Numbered from the stretch's first letter, positions 5,523 to 34,391 are shown. The stretch is DNA of 62,010 nucleotides from Candidatus Micrarchaeia archaeon (GCA_033853355.1 JAWOLP010000003.1:1-62010), one strand, 5' to 3'. The notes: generated from the letters alone by a model not told the origin. Program-made: numbers and translations.

Positions 5523-5544
5523 ATTCTTCTTAAGGTGTCATGAC

Positions 5545-6000: not shown

Positions 6001-6027
6001 TAGGCCGTCGCTATCGGTGAAACACTT

Positions 6028-11599: not shown

Positions 11600-12322
11600 A
11601 TGGCCACACCGACCCATCGCTCCACGGCCCAGCTAGGGAGTCTGAAAGACGAGCGGAGCTTCCGGGCGGCCCTGATCTCGCTCGCTAAAAACGGGGATCC
11701 GACTCTGATATCCGAACTCTCCGAGAACCGGGCCATGATGGACACGCGGGACTCCCACAAGAAGACCCTGCTCATGATGGCCTCAGAGCGGGGCCATCTC
11801 GCCCTGGCCGGCTCCCTCCTCTCGATCGGCGCCGATCCGCGCGCGCTCGATGATCACCGCAACTCCGCCCTCATCCTCGCATCATTCGGCGGCCACGGCG
11901 ATGTGGCCAAGCTCCTCGCTCCCGTGTCGGAGATGGCCCAAAGAAACGGCTTCGGCTGGAACGGCCTGATGGGGGCGGCGGTCTCCGGTGACGTGGACCT
12001 GATCTCGTTCCTGGTCGCCAGGGGCGCAGATCCGAAAGATGCCGACGCTGGCGGAAGGACCCCGCTGATGAAAGCGGTGCGCTACAACCGGCTCGATGCC
12101 GTAAGGTTCCTGGCCCCGATCTCGCCGATAGACGCGGCCGACGTCGATGGCGACACCGCACTGCTCAAAGCCTGCCGCTACGGCCTTGCAGAGATAGCCC
12201 GCGTATTGAGGCTCCACGGGGCCGACCCTCTGGCGGAGGATCTCCGCGGCGAGAGCTGCATAAAGAAAGCCAGGAAACACGGCTTCCTCGAGCTCGCCGA
12301 GAGCCTGCTAAAGCCCCTTTAA
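11600..12322 (+). CDS. Ankyrin-repeat protein
   Basis: About 5-6 tandem ~33-aa ankyrin repeats, for example KKTLLMMASERGHLALAGSLLSIGADP, RNSALILASFGGHGDVAKLL, GRTPLMKAVRYNRLDAVRFL and GDTALLKACRYGLAEIARVLRLHGADP. Confidence 0.8.
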   Translation: MATPTHRSTAQLGSLKDERSFRAALISLAKNGDPTLISELSENRAMMDTRDSHKKTLLMMASERGHLALAGSLLSIGADPRALDDHRNSALILASFGGHGDVAKLLAPVSEMAQRNGFGWNGLMGAAVSGDVDLISFLVARGADPKDADAGGRTPLMKAVRYNRLDAVRFLAPISPIDAADVDGDTALLKACRYGLAEIARVLRLHGADPLAEDLRGESCIKKARKHGFLELAESLLKPL

Positions 12323-12684: not shown

Positions 12685-15600
12685 TCATTGGGGATTACCC
12701 TGTATCGCCTGGTTCCTTAGCATGAGGAAATACATAAGGGAATCCCTCATGCGGACCCCGCCGTGCGTATCCAGCCTTCCGTAATCCTGGTTGTTCCGTA
12801 TGAAGCTGTTGTTCGCCCCTGCGCTCTCTACGTTGTCTATGAGCTGCTGCGGGGTGTTGTAGTTGGGCAGGAACTCGTAGCCGCTCGCCACGTGGAAGTA
12901 TTGTATGTCCACATGGACCCGCTCGCCGTAAACCGATTCGAGAAGGGCTTTTGTGAACGGCAGGAGCGTCCTCGAGCTCGAGTCCACCAGCACTCCGTCG
13001 AAGACGACGGGCGAGCCGGGGTTTATCACGCCAGACCTCTCCAGATAGCCGAGCATCTGCGTGCATGCGGCATCGAATTGCGGATCGCTAGCCCTCCTCG
13101 CCACTATCTGCCGCACAAGGCTGGCATTGAAGCTCGCGAACCGATCCCCGCTGGCTGACGCGCTCTCTTGCCTGGCCGTCTCCACCATCCCTCCCACGGT
13201 GCGGTCGAAGAACGCGGTCGCTTCCACAGGATCCACACGCCCTGCGGCGGTCCTTCCGACGCCGGCCTGCCCGAACGCCACCCGGTTCAGCAGCACCCCC
13301 CTGGGCGGGTCTATCCCCAGCGCCTGCGAAAGGACGGCGTCGGCGGCCATGAACCCTCCGCCATCGCGCCAGAGATATACACGGTTCCTGCCGCTGTTGT
13401 CATGGACGACAGCCTCCGCCATCCGGACGACCTGGCCGGCGAGATCCTGCATCCTCACGTCTCCGACCCTCATGGCCGTGATGTCGACCGCCCCGACACC
13501 GAGCTGCTCGGAGATCCTGTTCGCGATGAATTGCATCTGGGCATCAGTCAGCCTAGTGTTCGGCGCGGACCTGACGAAGTCCATGACCGAGGCCAGCAGC
13601 GCACCGGAATCGTTGATGTCGCCGAACCTCCCGAAGTTCGTGCGTAGCTGCTGGGGGATGGCGCTCTCGATGTGCTGCCTGTACTCCTCTATCGTCCTAT
13701 ACTGGCTCTGAGCGTTGAACTCGTTCTCCAGGACGCGGTTGTATATGCCATCCCTGTACGCCGCGTACCTCTGGGCCAGGACGAACGATAGCACCCCCGA
13801 CTCGCTCGTCCTTACCGCCCTCGTCCCAAAGACCGGGTCGGTGACTTCCCATAGCATCGCGTCGTTCAGGCGGTAGACCCTTCCCGGGGCGCTCTCGTCC
13901 CTGACGACGAGCCTGCCGCCCTCCTCGACGGTTATCTCGGACAGCCTCTGATCGTAATAGTTGACCCGGCGCAGGTCCCTCAGCCCCGCGTCCCGCGCCC
14001 TCTCAAGGGTGCTGCCCGGCGCGACGGCCGGCTCGGGACCCATCCTCAGCTCCATGTCGAGCAGCTCGTTCGATACCCGTCCGGCAGCCGCGCGAAGCTT
14101 GGACTCCTGCGTGAGGAAATTCGGGTTCCTCCTGAACTGCTCTATCTGGCCCCGGACCACCCTCGGGAGCAGGTTGAACCTCTCGACCGCCGCCGGGTCG
14201 TTGGCTATGAGCCTACGGGCGAAATCCGCGATGCCTTCCGGCTCCTCGAGGTTCAGCGTCCGCCGGGCCATGTTCAGCACGGCTTCCCTCCCCTGCTGCG
14301 ATCCAAGCACCATCTCCCGCGCTGATGCGAGGTCTGCCGGCGCGATCCCCGCGTTGCGCTGGAGGTACGCGTCCAGCTCGGCCATGCCGCCCGGCCTCCC
14401 GATCATCGGGATGATGTCGGCGTAATGCGGCTCTATCACCGCCTGCATCCTCAAGGCCGGGTCCGCGATGAGGGCATCGAACCGGCTCCTCATCGCCTCC
14501 GGCATGATCTCGCGAAGGGCCACCGCCTGCGGGTCCCCTCTCACCACCGCGCGGGCGAACGCCGAGACATCCTCCTCGCTAGTTATCCGCAGCTGCCTGC
14601 CCTCTATCGTCACGCCCTCCTCCATGGTGGCCGCCACGATCTGCTGCTGCTGCTCGGGAGGGAGGCTATTGAAGCGCGCACGCGCGATCTCATCCCCTGC
14701 AATGATGCGGCGACCGATCTCCACCTGGCCGCCGCGGTCGAGCGTTATCTCGTTGGCCGCCCTGCCTTCCATCCCACTTACGTGGAGGACCTGTGGCGCC
14801 CCGCCGCCACCGGACGACCTGATCCTGATGCTTCCGTCATCCCTCATCACGGGGCCGTCGATGACGCTCCTCTCCACATGCCTCCGGAACGGCCCGCCAG
14901 GATCGAAGAAGTTGCTCCCCATGGCCCTCGCAGGCTCCATGCCTTCCTGGGGCTGCGCCGGTTGCCCGACCTCTCTCCCTACGACGCGGAGAGGCGGCTG
15001 CTGCTGGGGGATGCCCATGTTCGCGGCCTCCGCCTGCTGCGTGGGGAGGATCTGGTCCACCGCGCCATTGATCTCCATCCGCGCCCCCTCCACCTGCGCA
15101 TAGCCTGGGCCGCGGATGCCCTGCTCCCTCCTTTCGCCGAGGTACCTGTTGAGCGCTTCCGGAGTCTGGGCGTTGTTGCGGAACCTCCTGCTGCCGGCCA
15201 GCCTGTTCACCGCGTCCCTCACGGGTTGGGGCAGCATGGCGAGCTGGTCAGTCGCCTCCTGGTCCCTGACCGCCCCGGATTCGGTTGGCATGACCCTCCT
15301 CGCGAACTGGGCCAGCCCGTTCACGTCGCCGAGCCGGAGGCTTATGGCCAGATCGGCCCCGACCATGTCTTTCTCCTGCTGCGTCGGAAGGGAGTTGAAG
15401 CGATTTACGGCCTGGCGCCTCACCTCAGGATCGGTGCTCGCGAGCCTCGAGGCGAGCTCGCCCCTCTGCTCCGGGACATTCATGTCGAGCCTCGGCGTCG
15501 GTATCTGCGAGATGTTGACCGGCACCACCGGCGTGACATCCTCGGGCCCGAGGCGCGGGCCGGGCCCTCCGCCTCCGGGCGGGCGGCCTCCTCCTCCGCC

Positions 15601-18600
15601 TCCCCTTCCGCCGCCCTCCATCACCTGAAGCCCTACCAGGTCGCCTAAGTCGGCCAGGCGGGGCATCGGTTCGGTCACCGCTGTGATCCTTCCGGTCTGG
15701 CGGTCTATCGTGAGCGTGAACTCGACGGCATTCGCGCGCCGCTCCGGCGGCACTTCGCCCTCGCCGACCTGCACGACCCGCCCATTCGTGCGGTCGTAAT
15801 ATCCGCGGACCTCGAGCGGGCCGGTCCCGATGGCGTTGATGTTCTCGAGGCCCTTGATTATCCCGACTGCGTTCCCGACGGCCAGCTCGAAAGGCTCCCT
15901 CTCTCCGGTGAAATGGCCCCTGACGTATCCCCTCTGCCGGTCGTTGAGCGGCGCGGCCGTCAGCGCGCTCTCATAGGTCTGCGCGCTCATCGGATGGATC
16001 AGGTCGGAACCATGCACCTCTATCCGCCCCGGCGACGCGACAGGCGGAGCCCCTCCCATCCTGATAGTCCCTCCAGGGCCGCCTTGCGGCGGAACCGGCT
16101 GGGCTTGCCCAGGCGTGCCAGGGATCTCGCCAGGCGGAGGAGGCGGCGCGGAAGCACGGTTGATATTGCCCTGGCTGACATGCGGCTGCGGGTCGACTGG
16201 ATGGGGAGCGGCGACCGCATCGGCGGGAGCAGCCGGGTGCAGGTTCCCAGGCGCGGGCTGCGGCGGCGGGTTGTTCGGGCGGACGGCGTTCTCGCGGTCG
16301 AGTATCCATCCCCCTATCTCGACGAACTGGTTGTTCATGAACCCCTGCCCCGCGTGCATGAGGCCGTTGAAGACGGGCACCGGGCCGACCGCTGTCGAAT
16401 TTATCCCGGTCAGCTCGCTGAAGCCAGGATCCCCTCTGAGGATGCCGAGAGTGAAGACCTCTGGGGGCAGTTCCGTGCGGTTGGCGGCGAAAGTCGATGG
16501 AGGTATGTCCCTGCGCGCCCTGATCAGGGGGACGCCGGCCTCCTGAAGCTGGACGGCGAGAGGATCGTTCGCGGCGATGACGCCGACCCTCTTCACGACC
16601 GCCCCTCCCGCGCCTGTGTAATCTATCACCCCGACCCTCGGCCCGGCCTCCGGCGGGAGAGCTGCGACGATCTCCGGCGTGACCTGGAAGACCAGCATCT
16701 CCTCTCCGGGCCTGAACATGTTCAGGATCCCAGGATGGATGTTCGCGAGGTTGCTGCCGTAGGAGATCTCGTACGAAGGCCTGTTCTCGGAGCGTCCGTC
16801 ATCATAGATGACGAAGCTGATGGGGTCGCCTGACTGGGGCGAGTTGAACTGCGCTGCCCCGCCCGGGCTCCTGATCATCCCTATCTCGACTGGGCCGAGG
16901 GGGTACCCCATGCCCATGGGCTCTCCTGCGTGGGAGTTGAAGCGCCTCGTAATGTCGGCGCGGTATGTGGCATTGTTCCCGAATTCTGTCCAGAACCTCC
17001 GCCCGCCGGCCGCCATCCCGCCGTTGAAATCGCCGGTTATGCTTATGGCGCCGTGGGGATCCCTGCTGATCTGGACGTTCCCGAAGGCCTCGTGGACGAG
17101 GTCGGGGACGCTACGGCCGGTGACATGGCTGAGGACGTCGAACATCCTGTGGAGGTCGGTGTTCCCGAACCTGTGGTTCATGTTCCCGAACCAGTAGTTG
17201 CCGCCGATCTCCTGGGCCATGTACACGCCGGCCGCGTCGGTATCGATTCCGCCGACAGTCGGGTTCTCTATCCTGAGCGTGCCGTCAGGATCGCGGACTA
17301 CGTTGGTCCCCTCTCTCCTCATCTGGGCGATCTGTGCGTCGCTGAGGGGCTGGGTGATCTCGAGATCCATGACACGGAGGTTTATCTCATGGCGGTCCCA
17401 CAGCCCTATCGCGTACGAGCCGGTGAGCGTGAAGCCGAGCTCCTCCCAGAATCTCGCCCTCACCGCCTGGTCCGGCGATGTGAGAGTCCCCATCACCCTC
17501 TCGTAGAGCTGTATCTGCTGTGGAGTGAACCTGTCGATCATCTGCTGGGCCTGCGCCCTTTCCGCCTCGTTCGTGGAGGTCCTCAGCGTCTCGTATGCGC
17601 TGCGGAGCTCGAGGACCTGCCGGATGCCCATCTCGGCCCTCGCCCTCACCTCGATGTCTAGGTTCCCCCTCCTTATAGTCCCCCTGAAGTCGCCCATGCT
17701 CTCGAGGATGCCGTATCGCGTGCCCGTGCCGTCGGCCATCGTGTAGCGCATGTCGCCTTCCGCCGTGGCTGTGTGGATCTCGGGCGCAGGTATGCCGGTC
17801 GCGCGCGAGTATTCGGCTCCTGCGGCATCGGGCAGCAGGTTCTGCCTCTTCACGTAAAGCGTCCGCATCTCGGTCACGTTCTCGCGCACCCCGCCCGGCC
17901 GCTCGACCTGCCTCGTTACCTCGACCCTCACCTCGTATGCTCCTACCGCGCCGTTATGGAACTCGATAGAGTGTATCCGGCCCACGGCGTTCTCCCCGGG
18001 CGGATACATGCCGCGGATTATGTCCGCGACGTGCCCGGGCATGTCGCCGGACAACAGCATGCCGAAAAGGAAGTGGTCGTCCTCGGGCCTGTTGAAGCCG
18101 CGGTAGGGCTCCGATACCCAGCTGCGGTCCGGCATGTTCGCCCAGGCGAAGGGCTCGAGCTCTATGCCCAGCCGCCGGGCCAGCGCCCCGCGCGCCTCCT
18201 GGATGTTATTGGCGTTCGCATAAATCTGCGTGAGCTCGTTCCTTCCGATGCCATAGATCCTGCCTATGGCATCGCCCACGGGCCCGCGCGAGAGGCTGCC
18301 GAGTTCGTTCAGGTACGTGGCGCCTTCATGCAGGCCGCGCCTATGGAGCTCCCCTACGACCGCCTCCTGCTGCTCGGGTTGCAGCCTCGAAAACTCCTGG
18401 GCGACTATGTCGAGGTGGTTTGCGTCCATCGTGCTGAAATGGTCTATTATCATCCTGCCTGCCAGCGCGCCCGCGCGGTTCTCCAGTCCCTGGCTGCGCA
18501 TCTGCGCCAGGGTCTCCTGCTGCCTCTCGATCGGCATCCTGGCGAAATCCTCCTGCGCCTGCCGCACGCGGGCCGGGTTGCCGCTCCTGTACGCTTCCAC

Positions 18601-27600: not shown

Positions 27601-30600
27601 CTCCATCACCGGCCGCACGTGGTCCCAAATATCGTCATCGGCGAAAGATGTCAGCTCCCTGGCCTCGCGGTAGTTGAGGCCGCCGAGCTCGTCGGCGAAC
27701 CCAATCGACCTCCCCCCGCGGCCGCCCATGCCGAAATTGCCGCGGAGGTCTGAATATACCGTGATGTAAGCGTAGCCGCCGTGCCGCGAATCGTCGTGCC
27801 ACTCGCGCGGCTGGCCCCTGAACTCGTAGATCGGCGCGGCGACCGCCTCGTTGCGCACGAGCATGTCATAGAACCGGAAGTCGTTCTGCTCGGACGTCGC
27901 TGCCATCGCGCCCTCGAACCTCCGGGCCGCGAACTCGCGGTAGGCCTCGTCCGTGTATCTGTGCGGGGCCCATCCGTGCGCCCTCTCCTCGTCCCTCATC
28001 TCCTCGCTGGTCTCGAGGCGGTATCTCTGCGACTGGTCGGCTGAGCGCAGGTCCTGCTGTCCGGCCCGGATGAATTTCCTGGCATACTCCCACCCTACGA
28101 CCCTCTGCTGGTGCCTCGCGCCGACCTCGAGGGTGGTGGCCGCGGCCTCGAGCTGGGCATCTATCGAGGAGTCCCAACCCTGGAGATGGGACTGCCTGGC
28201 CGCGTTCAATCCGCTCCTGAAGTCCGCGGCATTGGACGAGAGCGCGCCGTATATCTCTCCGCTCAGCTGCTGCGCCCGCCTCCAGTCGGGCGTACCTGTC
28301 ATGGAAGCGAGCAGGTCGGAATGCATCTGGGCGTATGTCCTCCCGTTCGGCCCTATCTCGTTCATCCGGTCGGCCGGGATGCCCTCTATCATGACCATCG
28401 CGAGATACGGGTTCACCTGCAGGATCGAGCCGCCGGCGAGGAGGCGGTCCCTCGCGTCCTCATTGGCCGCCCTCGCGCTGTCCCAGTCCCCCCCGTCGCG
28501 CCTCATGCTGCCGGCAAGATAGCTGATTGGTTGCTGCAGGGCGTTGTTCCGATCCTCGACCTCTCCGCGGCCCCGCACGTCGTCTTCGTCGGTGGGCATG
28601 GCTTCCTGGAATTCGTCGCCGGCATGGTTCGCGCTGTTCCTGCTGGACCAGGCGGCGATCGTGGTCCTGGTGACGTTGACGTCCTGCCGTGTGATCGCCG
28701 CTGCCCTCGACATCTCGCCCTCGACCTGGCCGAGGCCCGCTTCAGCGGCGTCGTACTGGCCGCTCTCGATGAGCGCCTGGTTCCTCGCGAAACGCCCGTC
28801 ATAGTCGACGGCATGGTAATAGAACAGATCCCCGCCGCCGACGACATCGCCCATCCTCCTCTGGCGCTGCGTGTTCGGATCGTAGACCTCGCGGTTGAGC
28901 AGCTCGTCCATCATCCCCTGCCGCTGCGCGTCCCCTTCAGGGCCAGCCGGTATGTTCGAGAGCCGCTGGCGCAGCTGCTCCCTCTCCGAGCTCGGCGGGA
29001 GATGGCTGATCAGCGTGTCGATGACTTCGGGGCGCGGAGTGACGCCGAGCCATGGCACCGTGGTCGTCTGGCCGGGCTGGCTCACAGGCGCCTCGGTAGA
29101 GACCACGCCTATGAACGGATTGTCCGGGCTCATCTCGCCGTACTGGCGCCTGAAGTTCGCGTCGTCTATCCAGACCTGCTGGCGGCCGCTAGCGGCCCGG
29201 ATGCCGAGCCTCGTCCTCCGCAGCATGCTGTTCGACGCGTCGAACCTCTCGGCGTACGCGAGGTTTATCCCGCTCGTCGCGTTGCGGTCGTGCTGGGACG
29301 CATCGTAGTAATCGTGACCGGAATCGTCCGTCGTCCTGGTGTTGGTGGCGTAGCCGACCTGCCTGTACACTTCCTGGAGCAGCGCGAGGTCGTTGCCGGC
29401 ATCCGTGAGGTTCTGCCTGAAGCCTTCCCTCGTGGCCGGATCCTCGACGCGGTCTATCATCTGGTTGATCAGGCCCTTTATCGTCTCGACGTTCTGGGCC
29501 TGGAGCTGCCTTCCCTGCGCCACGAGGCTCTGGGTCTGCCTGGTCTTCGACAGCTCCTGGTTGATGACCGCGGTCCCGACTTGCAGGGTCCGCTGCGCGA
29601 GCAGGAACCGATCCGGGTTTATCACCGGGATCGGCGCTCCCTGCGCGGGGGTCGGCGGGGGCTGGCCTGGCGGATACGGATGGCCCTGCTCGTCCACCGG
29701 CTCCCCGAGGAGGTTCACCCTCTGGCCGGTCCCGAGGCCGATGAAGGTCCGGACGGCCACCGTCGCGTCGAACCTCCCGCTCTCGCGGTGCCTGGACGCG
29801 ACCGAGGTCATGCTGGTGTCGAGGGATGCCACGCCGTCCCTTATCCCCGTGGCGGTGCGTATGAGCAGCTCGCCGTTCTGGCTGTGCTGGAGCACCTGCT
29901 GCTGGAGCAGGAAGCGGTAAAGCTGGCGCGTGCGCCCTTCGTCGGTTCCGGCCTCTTCCCGCAACCGGTTCGCCCTCGCCTGCATCTGCGGGGGGAGCTG
30001 CGGTATCAGCTCGCCGATGCGCCGGTTCACGTCTGCGATCGGCGCGGAATCGACGTTGTTCAGCTCGGTGGAGAATGTGAGGGCGGCGTTCTGCTCGGCC
30101 CTTCCCTGGAAGTATATCCTCTCTGCCGCGGCCCTGGATGTGCCCATGAAAGCGGGGTCGGCGAGCGCCTCCTGCCTCCGGTAGAACCTTTCCGCGACCT
30201 GGTCCCCGCGCGCGTGCGCCAGGTCGCCCTGGCGGTGCAGCCTCGCGGCCTCCCGCCTCCATGCGGCCTCGGACCTGGCGTTCTGCGCATCGCTCCTGCC
30301 GAAGACCCCTGTGGTGAGGAACTCGAGGTCCTCCGAGTTCCTAAGGTGAGTGGTGATCGCCCCCTGCCTCGTGTTGAGCTCGTTCAGCCCGCGGTCCGTG
30401 GCGGCCTGGTCGGTCCCGCCGCCGAGAGCCTGCGCGACCGAGCCGCCGCTTAGGATCGCCCTCGGTATCGGGAGGTCTGTCACCCGCGAGAGGTCCGCCC
30501 TCCAGGTGGTCCCGATCTGGCTTATCCTCCTCCCGCTGATCCGGAAATCCCTGCTTCCGAAATAATTGCCGAGCTGCCCCTCCACGTAATTCATGGCTTC

Positions 30601-33033
30601 GGTGCGCTGAGTCTGGCGCTCCGGCGTGAGCCGGTCGGCCGGCACGCTCGCCATCCTCGCGTAGGTCACGGCCATGTCGAAGACGGCGTTGTAAGCGGTG
30701 GGATCCTCGCTCCGCGCGGCGCGGAGCGCCAGGTCGAAGTAGGCGCGGCTGTTTATTATCGCGCGGTAATTCCTGCCGGCGACGAGCGCGCTCTCGTAGA
30801 TGCCCCTCTGCTCGTAGACCGCGAGCACCCTGCCCGCGGCCGTGCGCTCCAGCTCGCCGGCGCTCATCTGCCTGCACGCTTCGAGCAGGCCGCGCTTGTC
30901 CTCGGTGGTGGTGAGCTTCGTGTAAGTGGTGGCGGCGTTCCGGTACGCGGTGCCGTCGTCCAGCCTTCCGGCTATGGTGGCGTCGATCGAGTATGTGAAT
31001 ATCTGCCCGAGGGCGGCCCGGTCCCCCCTGTTGTTGCGTATCGTCGTGACCATGGCCGTGCCGGTCGCCATCAGGTCGTCGGCCCTCTGCTGGACCGCGG
31101 CGTTGGCGTCGACATGGGCGAGGTAGGTGATCGCGGCCTCGTCATCGGCGAGGTTCAGGCTCTGGTCGCGCCGGGCCTCGGCGATCCGCCCCCTCATCAC
31201 CGCCGCGTACTGGGGATCCGAGCCCATCCTCGCGGCCATCCGCTGCCTCGTCGCATCTATCTCCTCCTGGGTGGCAGGCTCCTGGCCGGCGGCGAGCCGC
31301 GAGTTTATCCTCTCGAGCTCGGCTATCGCCCTCTCCATTCCGGGCCTCGCTTCCGCCGGGAGCCTGGGCAGCTCCGCCCTGAACTCCGCAGCGCGGTTCG
31401 AGCCGTCTATGTAAAGCATGACCGCCTGGATGTACTCAGGCCCCTGGGTCTCGAGATTGTGCGAGAGGGCCTCGGCATCCCTGCGCTTGTTCTCGTCCCC
31501 GCTGATGTACATCTCGGCGAGCGAGGACTGCGCCATCGCGATCCTCGGATCGCCGCCGCTCGAGAGCAGCGTGAGCCCGCGGTTGTAGATCGTCGTCGCG
31601 CCCTGGCGGACCGGATCGGCCACGTTCGAGCCCCTCCCCATCCGCGCGTTCATGCTCTTCTCTATCTCCACGGCCGCCCGCGCCCTCTGGAGATCGTCCG
31701 CCGTGGATTCCGCACCCAGCCTCCCGGATATGCCCTGGAGGAGGGTCGCGGTCTGGCCGCTCTCCCTCTCAGCGGCCCTGTTCAGCTCGCCGCTCAGCGA
31801 GCGCGAGAGGGTCCCCCTCAGCGTGCCCATCGCGGTCTGCACGTCCGCGGGCTCCATCCCCTCCCTCGTCGCCGCGGCGGCCTGGGCGACCACGTCCCTC
31901 CTGAAATTTGCCGAAGCTCGGTCCGGATGGTTCCGGATCTCTTCGGCCGCGAACATCATGACGTTGAAATCCCCGTAGCTCCCGCCCCGCGCGAGCATGT
32001 TGATCGCCGAGACGAACACCGCCTGCGCCTGGGGCCTTATCGCTTCCGGCGTGTCGTTGAGCTCGGTGACGGCGAGCTTGTAGGCGTTCACCCTCATCGC
32101 GAGGCGGCGCATCTCCTCGTCCGTGACCTGCTCGGGGTGCTCCCTGAGCCTGGTCTCCATGTCTCCTATGTCCCGCATTATCGCGAGGCCGGCATCCCGG
32201 AGCGGCCCGGTGGTCCCCTGGGCGAGCTCCTCTATGCGCTCCCCTTCCCGCCCGAAGGCCCAGGCAGCCCTCGTCCGCCGGTCGTCCTGGGCGCTCCTGA
32301 TCCCGTTCTCGACGTTGTCGAGCCTGGTCCCCGCCTCGGCGAGCCCCTGCGCGTCCATCGTCTGGCCCTGGCTTATGAAATTGACCGCCGAGCCAAGGGC
32401 TCCGAGCGCCTGCGCGCCGTCCCGGCTCATGAGGAAGTCCCTGTTCGAGAGGAACATGTTGACGCCGCGCATCATCGCGTCCCCCCTCTCCGTCTGCCCC
32501 GCGCCGTAAGCGTTCAGCGCGAACGTGACGTCCGAGAGGAGCGCGGTCGAGAGCTGGTTCGGCAGCCCGGCGACGTTTATCTGGCGCACCGCCGAGATAG
32601 CCTCGGGCAGGTGCTCCACCTGGCGCTGCGTCCGGCGGAATATCTCCGCCGCCTGGTCAGGATGCCCGGTCTCGAGGAGCTGCTTCGCGCGGTCGAGGTC
32701 CTGCTCCCACTGCTGGATGCGCGTCTCGACCCCGCCGAGCTGCTGGTGGGCCATGACGTCGAGGCCGGCTCTCATCTCGTCTATCCTGGAGCCGAGCCTC
32801 GCGCGCTCCTGCCGGTCGTTCAGCCCGAACCTCCGGTCGATGTCGCGGCCGACCGCGACGGCCGAGGCGGCGCTCCTCTCAGCGGCCTCGAGCGTGGTCA
32901 TGACCTGCGCGGTCGGAGGAGTCCTCTGGGCCTGCGGCGCGGCGAGCTGCCTCATTATGTCCTCGGCGGCCTCAAGGGGCCTGGCCGAGAAACCGCCTCC
33001 TCCCTCCCTTTCTCTCTGCGCTTGGGGTGACAT
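12685..33033 (-). CDS. Giant (6,782 aa) multi-domain membrane protein with three kinase-like modules
   Basis: A single uninterrupted 20,349-nt ORF. Every other long ORF in this span is a shadow with Arg/Pro/Gly-dominated composition. It contains the helical N-terminal third, a TM cluster, a coiled coil, PKL modules, Gly/Arg/Pro linkers and internal repeats listed under findings. Confidence 0.9.
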   Translation of the reverse strand: MSPQAQREREGGGGFSARPLEAAEDIMRQLAAPQAQRTPPTAQVMTTLEAAERSAASAVAVGRDIDRRFGLNDRQERARLGSRIDEMRAGLDVMAHQQLGGVETRIQQWEQDLDRAKQLLETGHPDQAAEIFRRTQRQVEHLPEAISAVRQINVAGLPNQLSTALLSDVTFALNAYGAGQTERGDAMMRGVNMFLSNRDFLMSRDGAQALGALGSAVNFISQGQTMDAQGLAEAGTRLDNVENGIRSAQDDRRTRAAWAFGREGERIEELAQGTTGPLRDAGLAIMRDIGDMETRLREHPEQVTDEEMRRLAMRVNAYKLAVTELNDTPEAIRPQAQAVFVSAINMLARGGSYGDFNVMMFAAEEIRNHPDRASANFRRDVVAQAAAATREGMEPADVQTAMGTLRGTLSRSLSGELNRAAERESGQTATLLQGISGRLGAESTADDLQRARAAVEIEKSMNARMGRGSNVADPVRQGATTIYNRGLTLLSSGGDPRIAMAQSSLAEMYISGDENKRRDAEALSHNLETQGPEYIQAVMLYIDGSNRAAEFRAELPRLPAEARPGMERAIAELERINSRLAAGQEPATQEEIDATRQRMAARMGSDPQYAAVMRGRIAEARRDQSLNLADDEAAITYLAHVDANAAVQQRADDLMATGTAMVTTIRNNRGDRAALGQIFTYSIDATIAGRLDDGTAYRNAATTYTKLTTTEDKRGLLEACRQMSAGELERTAAGRVLAVYEQRGIYESALVAGRNYRAIINSRAYFDLALRAARSEDPTAYNAVFDMAVTYARMASVPADRLTPERQTQRTEAMNYVEGQLGNYFGSRDFRISGRRISQIGTTWRADLSRVTDLPIPRAILSGGSVAQALGGGTDQAATDRGLNELNTRQGAITTHLRNSEDLEFLTTGVFGRSDAQNARSEAAWRREAARLHRQGDLAHARGDQVAERFYRRQEALADPAFMGTSRAAAERIYFQGRAEQNAALTFSTELNNVDSAPIADVNRRIGELIPQLPPQMQARANRLREEAGTDEGRTRQLYRFLLQQQVLQHSQNGELLIRTATGIRDGVASLDTSMTSVASRHRESGRFDATVAVRTFIGLGTGQRVNLLGEPVDEQGHPYPPGQPPPTPAQGAPIPVINPDRFLLAQRTLQVGTAVINQELSKTRQTQSLVAQGRQLQAQNVETIKGLINQMIDRVEDPATREGFRQNLTDAGNDLALLQEVYRQVGYATNTRTTDDSGHDYYDASQHDRNATSGINLAYAERFDASNSMLRRTRLGIRAASGRQQVWIDDANFRRQYGEMSPDNPFIGVVSTEAPVSQPGQTTTVPWLGVTPRPEVIDTLISHLPPSSEREQLRQRLSNIPAGPEGDAQRQGMMDELLNREVYDPNTQRQRRMGDVVGGGDLFYYHAVDYDGRFARNQALIESGQYDAAEAGLGQVEGEMSRAAAITRQDVNVTRTTIAAWSSRNSANHAGDEFQEAMPTDEDDVRGRGEVEDRNNALQQPISYLAGSMRRDGGDWDSARAANEDARDRLLAGGSILQVNPYLAMVMIEGIPADRMNEIGPNGRTYAQMHSDLLASMTGTPDWRRAQQLSGEIYGALSSNAADFRSGLNAARQSHLQGWDSSIDAQLEAAATTLEVGARHQQRVVGWEYARKFIRAGQQDLRSADQSQRYRLETSEEMRDEERAHGWAPHRYTDEAYREFAARRFEGAMAATSEQNDFRFYDMLVRNEAVAAPIYEFRGQPREWHDDSRHGGYAYITVYSDLRGNFGMGGRGGRSIGFADELGGLNYREARELTSFADDDIWDHVRPVMEQRAEDRTTLELATLGVGRVWHGNDGSLSTTHAEGEGYWGLSRLHNTPQQTAALNEAYSQFMQLDGEVESVIFAHDSPWGADPQQVFFDRMSARQGSARDSGLSAIGRLNIVPVSTATGEIQFEAPDLDRSATLLASSVPFVQNQQGQWVDTNDQTTVDARASMGRYRSAYRVTVAVGKFAVATVGIVAAPATGGASLVLTAGVGAMGIAEGIEQREQMGKWTAGSIFTVSVGVVTTVLPFAGELAAAGRGAAALNEAATLMNETEQAVNAARLAGASRATIEAINTWTEGTSAAAQATRTLSFGQRAWQLAWGAEDLSIAQRAIHLTGNALAVSGAGQFAYQMPSMIRSVQNGDMTWWEASFYGFQTVIQPLVAARYAQLRSAPGEEGIPRYVPRWRQVIEAGLLGVPMQSGEVHAMALDYSRLQGEIGRMPIAERTTYRASLGDRPLAPSIERGVLSDYNATRAAGGVRNFEEYAASPAGRRTIESARSENNYQAFERAMNSGGVSSIEEFERSGNNGQPFPLDNAQRAYIRARLGGAEPADAFTASTRAAAPPAPQAQPRTRMESLRAAAETRRTEADMSAFRARVESANFTSRAVAPDGQATYTIGRGEEAITYTQQHVETASDMIFHTERILRENPDFASLPEARRNEILANVPERIRSQVSDLVFDPEFARAARAQGGPDTPTELRLALGKASYVADIAADPRVMDAGYATEVRPVIESPELVPRDLAEHAEGRRNDAQGMRDQAFELRRDAQSTVHSDVERQGMLESATALENRATALEHSADRIDAAYRRRATPADIRERAAGARAEARGLHDQAEQTRSSFREEETRLANDPELLARRRSQMEEDVARIEARAAALEDRARGFDSLAREREEALAPTAPPAAHEEGRTVPRAPNEAVRQEAQPLTAQQQARAQELMSARGMSREAAEAFVRDEAARPNAVPLAVEEHLGEQGFQGMPTEYQSRRITLRDGSTTTLSEAPRARLLRRIDNTEDSVGSTAGVWEAEIMVDGQPRRVAVKVFKDPFNRGQPPTAEQWENLFGFVTGRPAAEGRPSTMGEAGNLDTIGGMTYRSPDGRELPVGPGFYRFVNVDGNIAIAMDLLPGMYIGDMNPTQIREFVRPETYQQIQRIGETLEANGYGMHDFQFIVVFPPEAQIPTGLSGAARRQFIENWHTTINGREVRAGDVVLMDAGGLYRAADEPHSTFSPTREADSARWTGNNVLINDHLARLTATATDAAAQPQARAQAQADLRAMEGFMREVEPNVRAEDPMGEVTRRYMLVGNRETRAAARLDEIRQTDPARAQEIEGAFRRFERDTGIPEGTLLPVRAGEVPAAAVREGTTGLPVEEQPTLVPTRPPEGQPVARRAGPEEVTTPGGRRVTPTATPEEVTTPGGRRRGGGGEGAPPAIGEGGGGPVAAPRGGGRGGPAARGEEIAHNVEDITTAEVARQRAQVESGMPPQSREVLDVAEALMGKRGDMSRTDARARLQEWEAARDPRAAAVERLTSTTSTVSRIFETASPVERAIFADEIARAPEGEPVERTLERAYDGIARMRPTPDTSAEMLAQARELGAMPDSAQRIEALKRTGRDELAGALDLAMRTRDPQVRERIGNEWEASRVARRREDSIAAARSARRPEDVAASDVAAIREFGRSRNMDPDLVDSIAHDYGQGGAEGRLRVLDGMGVRPFAAQRDSIARNEQIVESLQQRVNDLAPDDPARAPLERELNNRRTALQTERATLEANANGLFDLVVRGNLQQRIAGLPGFEDATITGVTHLGGLRGIYRVELSGGRHLFVKAEDVAPAAFGARMAQAEGLMSSGIHSGFSYDTGVAYTDPITGAPAQARQEFGIIEDIRTLVGRDVEIRLPDGRVQTQRVEGIEMVTDILAHPDPNNPVHRAFYELLSTPQGRQRIAEAWRAYQEMSRRAGLMDRYRRNSAFSLSRGSDNQVNITFQPIDTDGVGTRIYSRPETGRTDLSVFNRDFADGTAAFMLDLTRASQQAQGIGGTGGPLMQGGAVSLSQLHSDFFSPQAERGARLPADTPEMRARANAEIQSYDGQPFGIGFNAYNSAENPNIGDMVLQGGRLRIVERADGRVAMHADEQARVSDQLAAGQGEFVAGQRDMVNTELSTRITGVAERIARGESVSRDTPGYEIAEALARDPAFAGADQAARREMAARAIESATGEAVRPGAPAHEPSAPEIEIVEGEPTSASRRRGPQPPPLPQEVTPGMIEEVQPAAPPPQEQGVTTPSRGRRPSPPPAERAAVREVSDAEVNAFLARYREGLENAHAINADDPAFEFSNVMMERYRLPEGASFSEIRAANRRALEDLRNPSPELIAAAREVLARRAEPYAFEAYALRQAGQPPAPAAHEETTTPQRVRPPSPAAHEEVTTPARAGRAPEEAHVEPQPAPVVHERALSGPGELGNLAARAINNDPGAAADIAGINEAGRNAIEGYRRTVDGMLAQGTRRHGLIEFSVELTNAQNEVGGVSTALQWVAGAPGPGGRPGLVEFTEVYTNNAAAGHDDAVALFNKFPPEVQGLIRDFIAQRAGAHDETALARDFSGRITNEIQTRGTAASDEFFARYGIRPNAFEALAMRNLGPRAVDALMHFHTMPPEVQRLVGEFITARPNAFDEDALAQAYSQHIHGAFEAQGVQATYEAYRQSGNMPADPVEALTIRYLTQNGTVSPETLPHDQQMAAYNQAAEFRAMAREYAAGGRPITDVSDLALAARQAAPPTQMEAAALGYGNARNAAAAYRFVNDAARARAAQNGRPGSPTPEDYMFGAMLARTVGTREQPPARMEGVIGAFDPVENQGTPQAGIRAHVDVAVSTPDGVNLYVRVFSDRVTVIGADPQGVIGRAEWPGPDVQAAYIRYAQTRYGQQLNDAFEAAGRFIDDAAFRPESGVGRNERTAMLARARSAIEGHPDLVPARMGVDQITDAFQTNDGAARSNAEGGFRRLDRAHQDQVITELRFFGRRAEADYLSSIRRPEPADVVEAYRSGNPARVRQAQEDFARMPIERQQETLAQMRSQGLENRAGALAGRMIIDHFSTMDANHLDIVAQEFSRLQPEQQEAVVGELHRRGLHEGATYLNELGSLSRGPVGDAIGRIYGIGRNELTQIYANANNIQEARGALARRLGIELEPFAWANMPDRSWVSEPYRGFNRPEDDHFLFGMLLSGDMPGHVADIIRGMYPPGENAVGRIHSIEFHNGAVGAYEVRVEVTRQVERPGGVRENVTEMRTLYVKRQNLLPDAAGAEYSRATGIPAPEIHTATAEGDMRYTMADGTGTRYGILESMGDFRGTIRRGNLDIEVRARAEMGIRQVLELRSAYETLRTSTNEAERAQAQQMIDRFTPQQIQLYERVMGTLTSPDQAVRARFWEELGFTLTGSYAIGLWDRHEINLRVMDLEITQPLSDAQIAQMRREGTNVVRDPDGTLRIENPTVGGIDTDAAGVYMAQEIGGNYWFGNMNHRFGNTDLHRMFDVLSHVTGRSVPDLVHEAFGNVQISRDPHGAISITGDFNGGMAAGGRRFWTEFGNNATYRADITRRFNSHAGEPMGMGYPLGPVEIGMIRSPGGAAQFNSPQSGDPISFVIYDDGRSENRPSYEISYGSNLANIHPGILNMFRPGEEMLVFQVTPEIVAALPPEAGPRVGVIDYTGAGGAVVKRVGVIAANDPLAVQLQEAGVPLIRARRDIPPSTFAANRTELPPEVFTLGILRGDPGFSELTGINSTAVGPVPVFNGLMHAGQGFMNNQFVEIGGWILDRENAVRPNNPPPQPAPGNLHPAAPADAVAAPHPVDPQPHVSQGNINRASAPPPPPGEIPGTPGQAQPVPPQGGPGGTIRMGGAPPVASPGRIEVHGSDLIHPMSAQTYESALTAAPLNDRQRGYVRGHFTGEREPFELAVGNAVGIIKGLENINAIGTGPLEVRGYYDRTNGRVVQVGEGEVPPERRANAVEFTLTIDRQTGRITAVTEPMPRLADLGDLVGLQVMEGGGRGGGGGGRPPGGGGPGPRLGPEDVTPVVPVNISQIPTPRLDMNVPEQRGELASRLASTDPEVRRQAVNRFNSLPTQQEKDMVGADLAISLRLGDVNGLAQFARRVMPTESGAVRDQEATDQLAMLPQPVRDAVNRLAGSRRFRNNAQTPEALNRYLGERREQGIRGPGYAQVEGARMEINGAVDQILPTQQAEAANMGIPQQQPPLRVVGREVGQPAQPQEGMEPARAMGSNFFDPGGPFRRHVERSVIDGPVMRDDGSIRIRSSGGGGAPQVLHVSGMEGRAANEITLDRGGQVEIGRRIIAGDEIARARFNSLPPEQQQQIVAATMEEGVTIEGRQLRITSEEDVSAFARAVVRGDPQAVALREIMPEAMRSRFDALIADPALRMQAVIEPHYADIIPMIGRPGGMAELDAYLQRNAGIAPADLASAREMVLGSQQGREAVLNMARRTLNLEEPEGIADFARRLIANDPAAVERFNLLPRVVRGQIEQFRRNPNFLTQESKLRAAAGRVSNELLDMELRMGPEPAVAPGSTLERARDAGLRDLRRVNYYDQRLSEITVEEGGRLVVRDESAPGRVYRLNDAMLWEVTDPVFGTRAVRTSESGVLSFVLAQRYAAYRDGIYNRVLENEFNAQSQYRTIEEYRQHIESAIPQQLRTNFGRFGDINDSGALLASVMDFVRSAPNTRLTDAQMQFIANRISEQLGVGAVDITAMRVGDVRMQDLAGQVVRMAEAVVHDNSGRNRVYLWRDGGGFMAADAVLSQALGIDPPRGVLLNRVAFGQAGVGRTAAGRVDPVEATAFFDRTVGGMVETARQESASASGDRFASFNASLVRQIVARRASDPQFDAACTQMLGYLERSGVINPGSPVVFDGVLVDSSSRTLLPFTKALLESVYGERVHVDIQYFHVASGYEFLPNYNTPQQLIDNVESAGANNSFIRNNQDYGRLDTHGGVRMRDSLMYFLMLRNQAIQGNPQ
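17200..18000 (-). other. Atypical PKL module B of giant ORF 1 (DRHxxN catalytic loop)
   Basis: MRTLYVKRQNLLPDAAGAEYSRATGI ... YAIGLWDRHEINLRVM (codons at 17380-17397) ... VGGIDTDAAGVY (17221-17253). The DRHxxN plus (I/V)D pattern is the PI3K/PI4K-type kinase signature. Confidence 0.5.
21650..22300 (-). other. Atypical PKL module A of giant ORF 1 (degenerate catalytic loop)
   Basis: GGRHLFVKAEDVAPAAFGARMAQAEGL ... GLMDRYRRNSAFSL ... FQPIDTDGVG. It is colinear with module B, but the His of DRHxxN is replaced (DRYRRN). Confidence 0.4.
23990..24600 (-). other. Protein-kinase-like (PKL) domain K1 of giant ORF 1
   Basis: GSTAGVWEAEIMVDGQPRRVAVKVFKD (Gly-loop plus VAxK Lys), IAIAMDLLPG (hinge), GMHDFQFIV (catalytic Asp) and GDVVLMDAGG (metal-binding Asp). 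This is a RIO/Bud32/APH-like pattern. Confidence 0.55.
26850..27095 (-). other. Transmembrane module of giant ORF 1 (AAPxTGGxS motif)
   Basis: YRVTVAVGKFAVATVGIVAAPATGGASLVLTAGVGAMGIAEGI...WTAGSIFTVSVGVVTTVLPFAGELAAAG is the only strongly hydrophobic cluster in the protein. It is homologous to 38650-39170. Confidence 0.65.
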
Positions 33034-33037
33034 GGGA

Positions 33038-33394
33038 TCACTTCGCGTAGTTGTAGCAGATGTCGCTGAATTCCCTGAGGATCTCGACCCTCGAGTTCAT
33101 GTCCTCTTTCTTGGCCATGGCGAGGAGCATCTTCTTCTCCCAGTTGGCCAGCGCGTCGTGGAAATACCGCAGGCGCTCTATGCGCGGCTTGTAATCCACA
33201 GGCTTGTCCTTCGATGCATCCCAGACCGCGATCGCGTTCTCGATCGCCGAGAGGGCCTTGTTCGCCTTCTCAAGGGCGTCCTTCTCGAGTCCTTCGACGT
33301 CGGAGAAATCGTACTGCTGCGCGCGGCTCTTGGCTGCGGCCGCCGGCGCTTTCTGTGGAGCTGCTTTCTTCACGACCATTCGATGCACCGCCAT
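33038..33394 (-). CDS. Small helical partner protein of giant ORF 1 (paralog of 35084-35419)
   Basis: 118 aa. Its stop lies 4 nt before the giant ORF ATG. LEKANKALSAIENAIAVWDASKDKPVDYKPRIERLRYFHDALANWEKK...VEILREFSDICYNY aligns with the partner of giant ORF 2. An alternative start (M6, 33379) fits the TATA at about 33402-33415 better. Confidence 0.75.
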   Translation of the reverse strand: MAVHRMVVKKAAPQKAPAAAAKSRAQQYDFSDVEGLEKDALEKANKALSAIENAIAVWDASKDKPVDYKPRIERLRYFHDALANWEKKMLLAMAKKEDMNSRVEILREFSDICYNYAK

Positions 33395-34381: not shown

Positions 34382-34391
34382 GCGTTTTTTG

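Follow-up and report, generated by a model that had tools for sequence, protein, structure and literature searches.

A giant, lysine-poor protein of Candidatus Micrarchaeota carries three kinase-like domains and may be a membrane-inserting effector

We analyzed a window of 62,010 nucleotides (GCA_033853355.1, JAWOLP010000003.1:1-62010). It contains two giant genes, each with a small partner gene directly upstream:

12685-33033, minus strand: giant gene, from the ORF list; 6,782 amino acids, 739 kDa, pI 5.4, 0.4% lysine, 0.03% cysteine
33038-33394, minus strand: partner gene; 118 amino acids (113 as annotated elsewhere), probably helical, lysine-rich
33524-34435, minus strand: HEAT-repeat protein; lies upstream of both partner and giant
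35084-35419, plus strand: partner gene, second copy; 9 nt separate its end from the start of the second giant
35429-43858, plus strand: second giant, divergent; 2,809 amino acids, 0.4% lysine

The larger giant is a single open reading frame with an ATG start and one terminal stop, and it is otherwise stop-free across 6,782 amino acids. Given the local base composition, the probability of so many stop-free codons by chance is about 1e-72. The antisense and off-frame ORFs inside it are all 780 amino acids or shorter, and GC3 (0.72-0.90) and GC2 (0.44-0.58) follow the codon pattern of a real gene over its whole length. The identical protein is recorded in NCBI for this 62,010-nt contig. A very long gene from a metagenome assembly might reflect pseudogenization, faulty assembly, or the joining of several genes through sequencing errors. 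But the coding signal is uniform, purifying selection differs by domain, and a second copy (97% identical, 6,756 amino acids) lies on a separate contig. Uninterrupted, co-linear orthologs (30-50% identical, 4,987-7,300 amino acids) are also found in other Candidatus Micrarchaeota assemblies, with co-linear orthologs located in two Micrarchaeota MAGs. The chance of an artifact is negligible, and we consider that explanation effectively refuted: positions 12685-33033 on the minus strand are a single genuine gene, and the organism is a DPANN archaeon of Candidatus Micrarchaeota. A preliminary description of this DNA had proposed a single gene with exactly these coordinates. It also called the length extreme for an archaeal gene, which is fair, although longer ones are known: giants of nanohaloarchaea are up to 9,409 amino acids long (PMC10266531).

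From N- to C-terminus, the protein can be divided as follows:

27208-33033, minus strand: N-terminal trunk, residues 1-1942; rich in Ala, Arg, Glu, and Gln, without a signal peptide
26374-27207, minus strand: hydrophobic module, residues 1943-2220; 4-5 Gly/Ala-rich segments (from hydropathy, a family HMM, and alignment)
24952-25419, minus strand: charged segment, residues 2539-2694, Arg/Glu/Ala-rich (from sequence; a putative coiled coil in the preliminary description)
23998-24678, minus strand: K1, a predicted minimal protein-kinase domain, residues 2786-3012 (from AF2, Foldseek, and alignment)
23281-23520, minus strand: Gly/Arg/Pro low-complexity linker, residues 3172-3251 (from sequence)
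21154-22416, minus strand: kinase-like module A, residues 3540-3960; G3595/G3598, K3613, D3746-R-xxx-N3751, D3772-x-D3774
20401-20871, minus strand: Pro-rich linker region, residues 4055-4211 (from sequence)
19543-20010, minus strand: two ~80-amino-acid FPPEVQ repeats, residues 4342-4497 (from tiled self-comparison)
18301-18732, minus strand: three ~50-amino-acid repeats, residues 4768-4911, with the motif F-x-x-[LM]-P-x-E-Q-Q
16846-18081, minus strand: kinase-like module B, residues 4985-5396; K5062, D5213-R-xxx-N5218, D5264-x-D5266
16081-16302 and 15547-15627, minus strand: Pro-rich linker and poly-Gly linker, flanking the next domain
15670-15936, minus strand: ~90-amino-acid domain, residues 5700-5788; 17 copies in 11 family proteins
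14074-15453, minus strand: three-fold FNxLP region, residues 5861-6320 (from self-comparison)
12700-14016, minus strand: C-terminal ~440-amino-acid domain without a match in Pfam, NCBIfam, or PDB, residues 6340-6778

This map is largely the one that had been read from the sequence beforehand, and the main claims of that reading (one giant gene, discrete modules, and three PKL domains downstream of a hydrophobic cluster) are supported. The Gly/Arg/Pro, Pro-rich, and poly-Gly linkers are all present, and the lack of a signal peptide was confirmed from the sequence. Tiled self-comparison recovered the three ~50-amino-acid repeats, the FNxLP triplet, and the two FPPEVQ repeats (residues 4342-4416 versus 4422-4497, 39% identity, E = 7e-10), as had been proposed. 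(A whole-sequence self-BLAST gave the identity match only.) The earlier map had overlooked the ~90-amino-acid domain between its last two linkers (residues 5700-5788), had drawn module B smaller than the real, discrete domain at nt 16846-18081, and had not seen the partner gene, the second giant, the family, or the near absence of lysine and cysteine.

The hydrophobic cluster of the preliminary description was located by hydropathy at residues 1983-2056 (nt 26866-27087). This is the core of the hydrophobic module and includes an 'AAPATGG' turn. Its Kyte-Doolittle peaks are moderate (1.4-1.8), and two weaker conserved segments follow at residues 2146-2197. The family HMM finds the module in 16 proteins. 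The trunk is co-linear with that of a relative, P0002 (32% identity), and has no match in Pfam or PDB. The C-terminal domain, which had been listed as a domain of its own, is a discrete recurring unit: it is shared only with P0009, P0011, and P0064 (a fragment found by a word-index search) and has no match in Pfam, NCBIfam, or PDB. The ~50-amino-acid repeat unit (r50) also occurs in P0005, P0010, P0017, P0031, and P0016.

An exhaustive search of 1.84 billion representatives yielded 59 relatives, mostly giants of 3,000-7,300 amino acids. Those with names are all "hypothetical protein" of Micrarchaeota. The same layout recurs in most full-length giants. It opens with a long trunk that lacks a signal peptide and continues with the conserved hydrophobic module with its Gly/Ala-rich hydrophobic pair; a variable series of enzyme modules follows, with Pro/Gly linkers and short F-x-x-L-P-x-E-Q-Q repeats between them. 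The modules (kinase, GNAT, Metallophos, and PIN) are shuffled across the 59 relatives as independent evolutionary units. C-terminal domains differ between orthologs, and everything except K1 diverges fast. Scans of the whole and tiled giant protein against Pfam, NCBIfam, and PADLOC gave nothing significant, and the unprocessed protein sequence had no match among PDB sequences. Metagenome and viral DNA scans with K1 and A also found nothing. (We took weak matches to T3SSipB, EzrA, MakE, and DUF2293 as noise.) In a literature search, we found no paper that describes these proteins. The giant mosaic family is undescribed and has so far been seen only in Micrarchaeota.

We then examined the kinase-like domains. 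K1 has a glycine-rich loop (GSTAGVW), a beta3 lysine (VAVK, Lys2836, followed by VFK), the alphaC glutamate, and aspartates in HDFQF and LMDAGG. Five columns are invariant in 16 copies (G40, K62, E101, D185, and D232 of alignment A3). K1 is 76-89% identical to its counterpart in P0002, versus 30-40% for the remainder of the protein. The AF2 model of K1 is confident (pLDDT 87.9, pTM 0.84). Foldseek gave 217 matches in PDB at E ≤ 1e-3, and the best 50 are all protein kinases (probability 1.00), with ULK1, CLK1, CK1, and Wee1/Myt1 among the matches; the TM-scores of 0.35-0.43 indicate that these similarities are remote. A profile of the K1 family matched PDB sequences over the N-lobe only (StkP, E = 1.5e-4; Rio1, E = 3e-3; also PknA). 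Against Pfam, there was no match to Pkinase (PF00069) or RIO1, even at E ≤ 10. (A Peptidase_M24 match in K1 scored 17-19 bits, under the cut-off of 23, and the domain models as a kinase.) With its predicted bilobal fold and its conserved glycine-rich loop, beta3 lysine, alphaC glutamate, and both aspartates, K1 belongs to the PKL superfamily. It shares these features, including the aspartates of the catalytic loop and of the DFG position, with Hanks-type and Rio-like kinases. But it lies outside the Hanks type proper (PF00069), as its loop is (G/H)DFQF instead of HRDxxxxN, with no clear asparagine. Its C-lobe is also very short (the core is ~200 amino acids), and it is embedded in a chain of 6,782 residues. 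K1 is best described as a predicted minimal Hanks/Rio-like kinase whose fold assignment is remote, and the earlier reading of this region as a discrete PKL domain agrees with the model.

Modules A and B are homologs; when searched with the A-family profile, B gives a score of 1.6e-72. The AF2 model of A (pLDDT 94.7, pTM 0.92) has the elements of a kinase in canonical order (beta1-3, alphaC, beta4-5, alphaE, catalytic loop, beta strands, DFG position, and alphaF). The best 50 PDB matches from Foldseek are again all kinases (E = 3e-4 to 6e-3), with remote similarity (TM-scores of 0.20-0.30). They include ATM, DNA-PK, VPS34, PI3Kdelta, and ATR, and YopO is fourth (probability 0.95). Across the A/B family, the lysine is present in 63 of 76 copies; conservation is 97%, 91%, and 97% for the D, R, and N of DRxxxN, and 97% and 92% for the two aspartates of IDxD. 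The predicted fold, the ATP-binding lysine, the catalytic Asp/Asn, and the metal-binding aspartates place A and B in the PKL superfamily as well, which fits their earlier description as atypical PKL modules.

The motif order of A and B (a glycine-rich loop, a lysine followed by acidic residues in FVKxED, D-R-x-x-x-N, and I-D-x-D) is that of the PI3K/PI4K and PIKK kinases. However, the likeness consists of motifs and remote fold only, and classical protein kinases score equally. A and B also have large beta-rich insertions and a C-terminal extension of ~150 amino acids with a conserved G-x-x-x-G and DGR. The A/B family has no match in Pfam or NCBIfam, including PI3_PI4_kinase (PF00454), which leaves it outside the PI3K/PI4K family, and its profile has no match among PDB sequences. 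(A word-index homology search with module B returned no match, not even module B itself.) Joining A/B and K1 in one family is not tenable: the profile-profile probability was 0.5%, which is not significant. These are two separate kinase-like families, even though the single stretch that aligned runs from the glycine-rich loop to the beta3 lysine. A and B belong, as copies, to one distinct, new kinase-like family of ~400 amino acids. The same genomes encode standalone A-type kinases of ~800 amino acids in housekeeping contexts, and these have no match in Pfam either.

The amino acid composition of the giants is unusual. Lysine makes up 0.1-0.4% of the giant protein and 13 relatives, and cysteine is purged from them as well. 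These 14 lysine-poor proteins together have 151 lysines in 67,783 residues, yet none of their 28 kinase domains has lost the beta3 lysine. The giant itself has 24 lysines; five are conserved in P0002, and four of these five belong to the beta3 motifs of the three kinase-like domains. Could the loss of lysine be a genome-wide effect of GC content? We rejected this explanation. Genes adjoining the giant encode proteins with 4-15% lysine at equal GC3, the partner family averages 11% lysine, and the tandem paralogs P0002 and P0003 differ about 20-fold (0.3% and 6.6% lysine) with GC3 of 0.81 and 0.82. The purge of lysine and cysteine is selective and specific to the protein, not mutational. About half of the family has a normal lysine content.

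Given the conservation of the canonical catalytic residues, and given that even purged chains retain the beta3 lysine, for which arginine cannot substitute, K1, A, and B very probably bind ATP and are catalytically competent. The preliminary description had argued that, if the kinases are active, everything C-terminal of the hydrophobic cluster must face an ATP-containing compartment. Our results strengthen the premise of that argument.

These results bear on whether the giant could be a surface adhesin or structural protein, with pseudokinases as binding modules and the C-terminal 4,700 amino acids displayed outside the cell, as for the nanohaloarchaeal giants. So far, the giant proteins described from DPANN have been surface proteins (PMC10266531), and our protein has many linkers and repeats. 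Its lack of cysteine would also fit; cysteine is commonly absent from extracellular proteins of prokaryotes. But a signal peptide is missing, as are adhesion domains (Ig-like, fibronectin-like, or other), and the hydrophobic module lies ~1,950 residues from the N-terminus. Furthermore, the retention of every catalytic residue, and of all 28 beta3 lysines despite the purge, would make little sense without ATP. We consider a display function very unlikely.

We also considered the gene neighborhood. The stop codon of the partner lies 4 nt before the ATG of the giant, and a partner gene of ~110 amino acids is directly upstream in all five giants with readable upstream DNA (loci L002, L004, and L006 and both giants here). 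The partner is translationally coupled to the giant gene. It has conserved motifs (AVWDAS and FSDICYxYA) and no match in Pfam; it is unlike WXG100/ESAT-6-like proteins (PF06013), with A-V-W-D-A-S instead of W-x-G. The second giant has the hydrophobic pair at residues 1079-1123, a GNAT-like domain at residues 2069-2284, and a K1-type kinase at residues 2422-2675. An ankyrin gene flanks the larger giant in convergent orientation and was not seen beside other giants. By eye, small HEAT-like proteins also flank the giants in L004 and L006. The locus occupies a conserved place on the chromosome, with ribosomal-protein genes on one side and ProRS/DHH on the other. (GC content rises at 12-46 kb, but a horizontally acquired island is not the cause: GC3 equals that of the neighbors, and another Micrarchaeota genome shows synteny in the flanks.) No secretion or translocation machinery is recognizable within the window or in loci L004 and L006.

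A conserved trunk with variable C-terminal domains, PIN, Metallophos, and GNAT modules in relatives, flanking ankyrin and HEAT genes, and a small helical partner upstream (as for some secreted bacterial toxins) might all suggest a weapon against competing archaea. It would resemble polymorphic toxins: the trunk and membrane module would deliver exchangeable C-terminal toxic enzymes, and the ankyrin and HEAT neighbors would confer immunity. However, it is the internal kinase K1, not the trunk, that is most conserved, and no known toxin or immunity domain is recognizable in the giant by scans of Pfam, NCBIfam, and PADLOC, the last without any match. Nor is there a same-strand immunity gene directly downstream, and we saw no conserved downstream gene; the ankyrin gene is convergent and was not seen beside other giants. 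This explanation seems to us quite improbable.

The main rival to our preferred interpretation is that the giant is a resident scaffold. It would never leave the producer: a two-pass hairpin would anchor it in the archaeon's membrane, with the trunk and kinases in the archaeon's cytoplasm, as a hub for signaling or organization (for instance, of the envelope, of division, or of the contact site). The purge would then shield a very long chain that is expensive to make from the producer's ubiquitin-like/proteasome system, or from the lysine-directed modules (GNAT) found in the family. The GNAT-like module is in fact confined to lysine-poor members (the second giant, GIANT2, and P0016), and the combination of kinase and phosphoesterase modules within one family resembles signaling. 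Several other observations speak for a resident protein and also count against an effector: the lack of a signal peptide and of nearby secretion genes; the conserved core chromosomal locus, which is not an island; the standalone A-type kinases in housekeeping contexts, which imply endogenous roles for the kinase family; and the half of the family that is not lysine-poor. But a scaffold leaves unexplained the 20-fold lysine gap between tandem paralogs and the lysine-rich partner. Fast divergence outside K1, shuffling, and variable C-termini are also more typical of proteins in conflicts or interactions than of hubs with housekeeping roles. On balance, we think a resident scaffold is somewhat unlikely.

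The interpretation that we tentatively prefer, at rather short of even confidence, is that the giant is a membrane-inserting multi-kinase effector that works in an ATP-containing cytoplasm, possibly that of a host. The central hydrophobic module would insert the chain into a membrane, and the enzyme array might then work in a cytoplasm other than the producer's, namely that of the cell to which the episymbiont attaches. The partner may be a cytoplasmic chaperone or adaptor that remains behind in the producer, and the purge of lysine and cysteine could protect the delivered chain from lysine-directed tagging or from degradation. There is a parallel in AB toxins, whose A chains have a bias for arginine over lysine that their B chains lack (PMC4030972), much as this bias is found in the giant and not in its partner. 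We count the shuffling, the variable C-termini, the upstream partner, the hydrophobic pair, and the ankyrin and HEAT neighbors as effector-like traits. Besides the points shared with the scaffold, others weigh against an effector. The hydrophobicity is moderate, and two passes would keep both halves of the protein in the producer's cytoplasm. The low Foldseek TM-scores (0.2-0.43) mean that the fold assignments are remote. Also, some Micrarchaeota may not be host-dependent (PMC12892359).

Known giants and toxins offer partial analogies. The SPEARE giant surface proteins of Nanohaloarchaeota have been proposed to act on hosts, and in their case as in ours, DPANN archaea with tiny genomes devote 20-28 kb to a single gene, but the nanohaloarchaeal proteins have a Sec signal peptide, Ig-like or fibronectin-like ectodomains, a VirB4/TraG-like ATPase, and a pI near 4 (PMC10266531). 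None of these features is present here, and we found no sequence relation between our protein and SPEARE proteins. MARTX, large clostridial, and polymorphic toxins are alike in their strings of enzyme modules, conserved delivery trunk, internal hydrophobic region, and small partners. However, the giant shows no homology to these or to AB toxins in sequence or domains, the producer is an archaeon, delivery is entirely hypothetical, and neither an autoprotease nor receptor-binding repeats can be recognized in the giant. YopO/YpkA from Yersinia is likewise a multidomain protein with a kinase domain, and it works inside a cell other than its producer (module A has a TM-score of 0.30 to it), but YopO requires a type III secretion system, and we saw no equivalent for the giant.

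A more specific proposal is that Micrarchaeota deliver self-inserting multi-kinase giants, free of lysine and cysteine, into the cytoplasm of the archaeal cell to which they attach. The kinases, and the GNAT, phosphoesterase, and PIN modules of the relatives, would reprogram the host; the purge would hide the chain from the host's ubiquitin-like/proteasome tagging; and the lysine-rich partner would be a chaperone left behind. We regard this full scenario as doubtful. If it is true, it would be the first archaeon-to-archaeon effector system, as well as a natural experiment revealing which lysines two kinase families cannot do without.

DPANN genomes are about 1 Mb or less, and this organism spends ~29 kb on two such giant genes. 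To our knowledge, there have been almost no molecular candidates for how DPANN episymbionts act on their hosts. This family provides testable ones: two kinase families with confident models (one of them wholly new and undetected by Pfam and NCBIfam), a conserved partner, and a conserved putative membrane module. It also suggests that much enzymology is hidden in "hypothetical" giant ORFs. Few natural signatures of selection against a type of residue are as clean as this purge, which spares only ATP-binding lysines, and it suggests that lysine-directed tagging or chemistry shapes the interactions between archaeal cells.

The 6,782-aa frame that the preliminary description had read as a single uninterrupted gene holds up. 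In the ORF listing, it lies on the minus strand, from an ATG at 33033 to 12685, with one terminal stop. At the local base composition, stops are expected every ~41 codons, and the chance of 6,782 open codons is ~1e-72; ORFs in other frames within the gene reach at most 780 aa. (Long antisense or off-frame ORFs occur on both strands inside 12685-33033, such as 28111-30453 on the plus strand. These are high-GC artefacts and may mislead gene callers.) Every 500-codon block has a GC3 of 0.72-0.90 and a GC2 of 0.44-0.58, and therefore a single real frame covers the full length. Also, a near-copy on another contig (6,756 aa, called from Met27) is 97% identical. That the giant is an artefact is hardly conceivable.

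The gene is conserved as well. Scanning one genome per species, we found two homologous loci, both from 'Candidatus Micrarchaeota archaeon' MAGs. In one (L001), the whole 14.4-kb homologous locus is one open frame. The other (L002) has a frame of at least 5,859 aa that follows the giant co-linearly, at 32% identity over residues 292-2529, 48% over 2723-3925, and 28% over 4350-5415. We searched 1.84 billion representatives exhaustively with HMMER, using residues 2780-3960 as the query, and identified 59 relatives (53 at E <= 1e-10), mostly of 3,000-7,300 aa. Those that are named are all 'hypothetical protein' from Micrarchaeota or Micrarchaeia (taxonomic range was read from source names). We found no publication on this family in a literature search.

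No significant match to Pfam, NCBIfam, PADLOC or PDB sequences was found anywhere along the giant. Local profile searches within the family showed that the modules proposed in the preliminary description are true evolutionary units.

Modules of the giant and their occurrence in the family
Residues 1943-2220: hydrophobic module, found in 16 proteins (family profile)
Residues 2786-3012 (K1): K1-type domain of ~195 aa, 19 copies in 18 proteins (family profile)
Residues 3540-3960 (A) and 4985-5396 (B): A/B-type domain of ~400 aa, 76 copies in 55 proteins (family profile)
Residues 5700-5788: ~90-aa domain overlooked in the preliminary description, 17 copies in 11 proteins
Residues 6340-6778: C-terminal domain, elsewhere only in P0009, P0011, and the fragment P0064

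The alignment of the hydrophobic module shows 4-5 hydrophobic segments, rich in Gly/Ala, with a turn of the form 'AP-x-TGG'. Ahead of the enzyme modules, at 1,000-2,400 aa from the N-terminus, most full-length relatives have two hydrophobic peaks separated by ~50 residues. The two FPPEVQ repeats (39% identity, E = 7e-10) share the motif F-x-x-[LM]-P-x-E-Q-Q with the FNxLP triplet and the three ~50-aa repeats (6 observed versus 0.06 expected from shuffles). Among 12 other giants in our alignment of family proteins, the only Pfam families were Metallophos (calcineurin-like phosphoesterase; 3 giants, best E = 1.1e-6), PIN (one giant, E = 3.8e-4), and DUF5817_CT (one giant).

K1 is by far the best-conserved part, with 76-89% identity to the L002 giant P0002, versus 30-40% elsewhere. 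The glycine of the Gly-loop, the lysine of VAVK, the glutamate of alphaC, and the aspartates of the (G/H)DFQF loop and the WDAGG motif are conserved in 16 diverse copies. The AF2 model, built from a family-only alignment of 16 sequences, has a pLDDT of 87.9 and a pTM of 0.84. Foldseek found 217 matches in PDB at E <= 1e-3; the best 50 of the 217 are all protein kinases (probability 1.00; ULK1, CLK1, CK1, Wee1/Myt1, and RET among them), with TM scores in the remote range (0.35-0.43). The K1 family profile matches StkP (1.5e-4), Rio1 (3e-3), A-Raf, and PknA, in the N-lobe only. Its likeness to RIO kinases consists of that Rio1 match, and K1 has no match to Pfam Pkinase (Hanks). The modelled fold and the conserved catalytic residues bear out the earlier reading of K1 as protein-kinase-like: K1 is predicted to belong to that superfamily, probably as a minimal Hanks/Rio-like kinase outside the Hanks family.

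Modules A and B, which had also been described as kinase-like, are two copies of another domain (B matches the shared profile at 1.6e-72). The AF2 model of A, from a family-only alignment of 38 sequences, has a pLDDT of 94.7 and a pTM of 0.92, with its elements in canonical kinase order. Its best 50 Foldseek matches are only kinases: classical kinases, PI3K/PIKK members (ATM, DNA-PK, VPS34, PI3Kdelta, ATR), and YopO. The scores are modest and the similarity is remote (E = 3e-4 to 6e-3, TM 0.20-0.30). The family's motifs are G-x-x-G, F-V-K-x-E-D, D-R-x-x-x-N (97/91/97%), and I-D-x-D (97/92%). This motif logic resembles the catalytic sites of PI3K/PI4K, but A/B shows no relation to them in Pfam or in a profile search against PDB sequences. 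In fold and motifs, A and B are predicted to be kinase-like, and they are not members of PI3K/PI4K. A/B and K1 have no detectable relationship, so the giant combines a minimal Hanks/Rio-like kinase with a new kinase-like family in two copies.

In the same genomes, single A-type kinase domains also occur in standalone ~800-aa proteins with normal lysine content: P0043 (L003, 6001-8523), P0036, P0041, P0044, and P0045. P0043 has a housekeeping context, and the three that we scanned (P0036, P0041, and P0043) have no Pfam match. Such proteins may be the cellular ancestor of the giant-borne modules.

The giant has just 24 lysines (0.4%) and 2 cysteines, with 10.6% arginine; bona fide neighbouring genes have 4-15% lysine at equal GC3. 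Two giant genes, with their Ala/Arg/Gly-rich, lysine-poor composition, account for the rise in GC at 12-46 kb, since GC3 in this stretch is the same as in the neighbours. Fourteen family proteins of over 900 aa, including both giants of the window, have less than 0.5% lysine (mostly 0.1-0.4%). Most other members have 3-10%, and all are nearly cysteine-free. On the L002 contig JBFMCO010000042.1, the tandem paralogues P0002 (2-17578) and P0003 (22402-24993) differ 20-fold in lysine (0.3% versus 6.6%) at GC3 of 0.81 versus 0.82. Lysines of lysine-normal relatives mostly align with arginine in the lysine-poor ones. These compositions indicate that the purge is specific to the gene.

Which lysines remain? 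Five of the giant's 24 are conserved in P0002, and four of these are K2836/K2839 (in VAVKVFK of K1), K3613 (A), and K5062 (B). Across the 14 lysine-poor proteins (67,783 residues, 151 lysines), the beta3 lysine is kept in all 28 kinase-like domains, and one in five of the lysines that remain is at such a site. In P0016, two of the four lysines among its 4,987 residues are beta3 lysines. This pattern is strong indirect evidence that the kinase-like domains bind ATP and are functional, and it points to selection against every dispensable lysine. Set beside these retained lysines, the idea that the giant is a surface adhesin with pseudokinases seems very improbable.

Close to the giant lie a partner gene and a second giant gene.

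33038-33394, minus strand: partner, 118 aa, probably helical, lysine-rich; its stop precedes the giant's ATG by 4 nt
35429-43858, plus strand: second giant, 2,809 aa, divergent from the first, with its own partner gene (35084-35419, plus strand)

Partner homologues are similarly placed before the second giant and before the giants of L002, L004, and L006. This family (39 clusters, ~100-125 aa, no Pfam match) is conserved far better than the giants (50-66% identity), averages 11% lysine, and has the invariant motifs AVWDAS and C-terminal FSDICYxYA. The second giant is also purged of lysine (0.4%) and cysteine. Within it lie a separate hydrophobic pair with 'AAPFTGG', a K1-type kinase, and a GNAT-like module, which also occurs twice in P0016.

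The flanking genes are archaeal: DUF373, an Rrp4-like exosome subunit, ribosomal S15/S13N and S3Ae, Ham1, archaeal-type ProRS, a DHH/RecJ-like protein, a THEP1 NTPase, and an S-layer-like protein. Ham1-S15-S3Ae (4965-6621) and DHH-ProRS (45465-48292) flank the giant locus. In L006, a 4,502-aa relative sits between the same blocks, and therefore this is a core chromosomal position. Other features of the window are as follows.

4120-4950 and 33524-34435, both minus strand: HEAT-repeat proteins near the giant (by eye, HEAT-like small proteins also follow the giants in L004 and L006)
9845-10885, plus strand: ORF without a Pfam match, 5' part of the call probably spurious; its C-terminal ~200 aa have three paralogous matches in L002 (17663-20162, minus strand), just downstream of the giant
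11600-12322, plus strand: ankyrin-repeat protein, convergent with the giant's 3' end
50612-50684, minus strand: tRNA-Val(CAC), the sole Rfam/ARAGORN match in the window
51100-52746, plus strand: 548-aa protein, 12.6% lysine, without a Pfam match; a ~300-aa Ala/Lys/Pro low-complexity N-terminus (AKKAPKKP-like), then a globular C-terminal part

The giant, then, is a genuine gene, conserved and mosaic. It encodes a conserved hydrophobic module and three kinase-fold domains with intact catalytic residues, is coupled to a partner, and is selectively purged of lysine and cysteine. From sequence, we strongly infer that its kinases are enzymes that depend on ATP, and hence that the C-terminal 4,700 aa must sit in an ATP-containing compartment, as the preliminary description had also reasoned. 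We tentatively suggest that this compartment would be the cytoplasm of a partner cell, a placement that we consider plausible and somewhat short of probable. The main rival is that the giant is a resident cytoplasmic scaffold, anchored by a hairpin. The lack of a signal peptide, the lack of secretion genes in three loci, the core chromosomal position, and the existence of lysine-normal and standalone paralogues all favour this rival, which we judge unlikely overall.

Several features recall delivered toxins or effectors: the mosaic, variable string of enzymes; the Gly/Ala-rich hydrophobic module within the chain; a partner that is small, conserved, and lysine-rich; the quick divergence of everything but K1; and the lysine purge. 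The purge resembles the preference for Arg over Lys in AB-toxin A chains, which is absent from their B chains (PMC4030972), and also lysine deserts, through which ubiquitin- or Pup-dependent degradation is averted (PMC10665810). We think toxin-like weaponry between archaea improbable. As for delivery into a partner cell, Micrarchaeota are mostly host-associated, with Thermoplasmatales and Sulfolobales as putative hosts (PMC12892359), and in another DPANN group, an action on hosts has been proposed for giant proteins (PMC10266531). The SPEARE-type giants of nanohaloarchaea have only size and clade in common with this protein. We rate the kinase-like families, in a new giant architecture, as new. 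Possibly, the giant represents an archaeal cell-to-cell effector system of a new kind.
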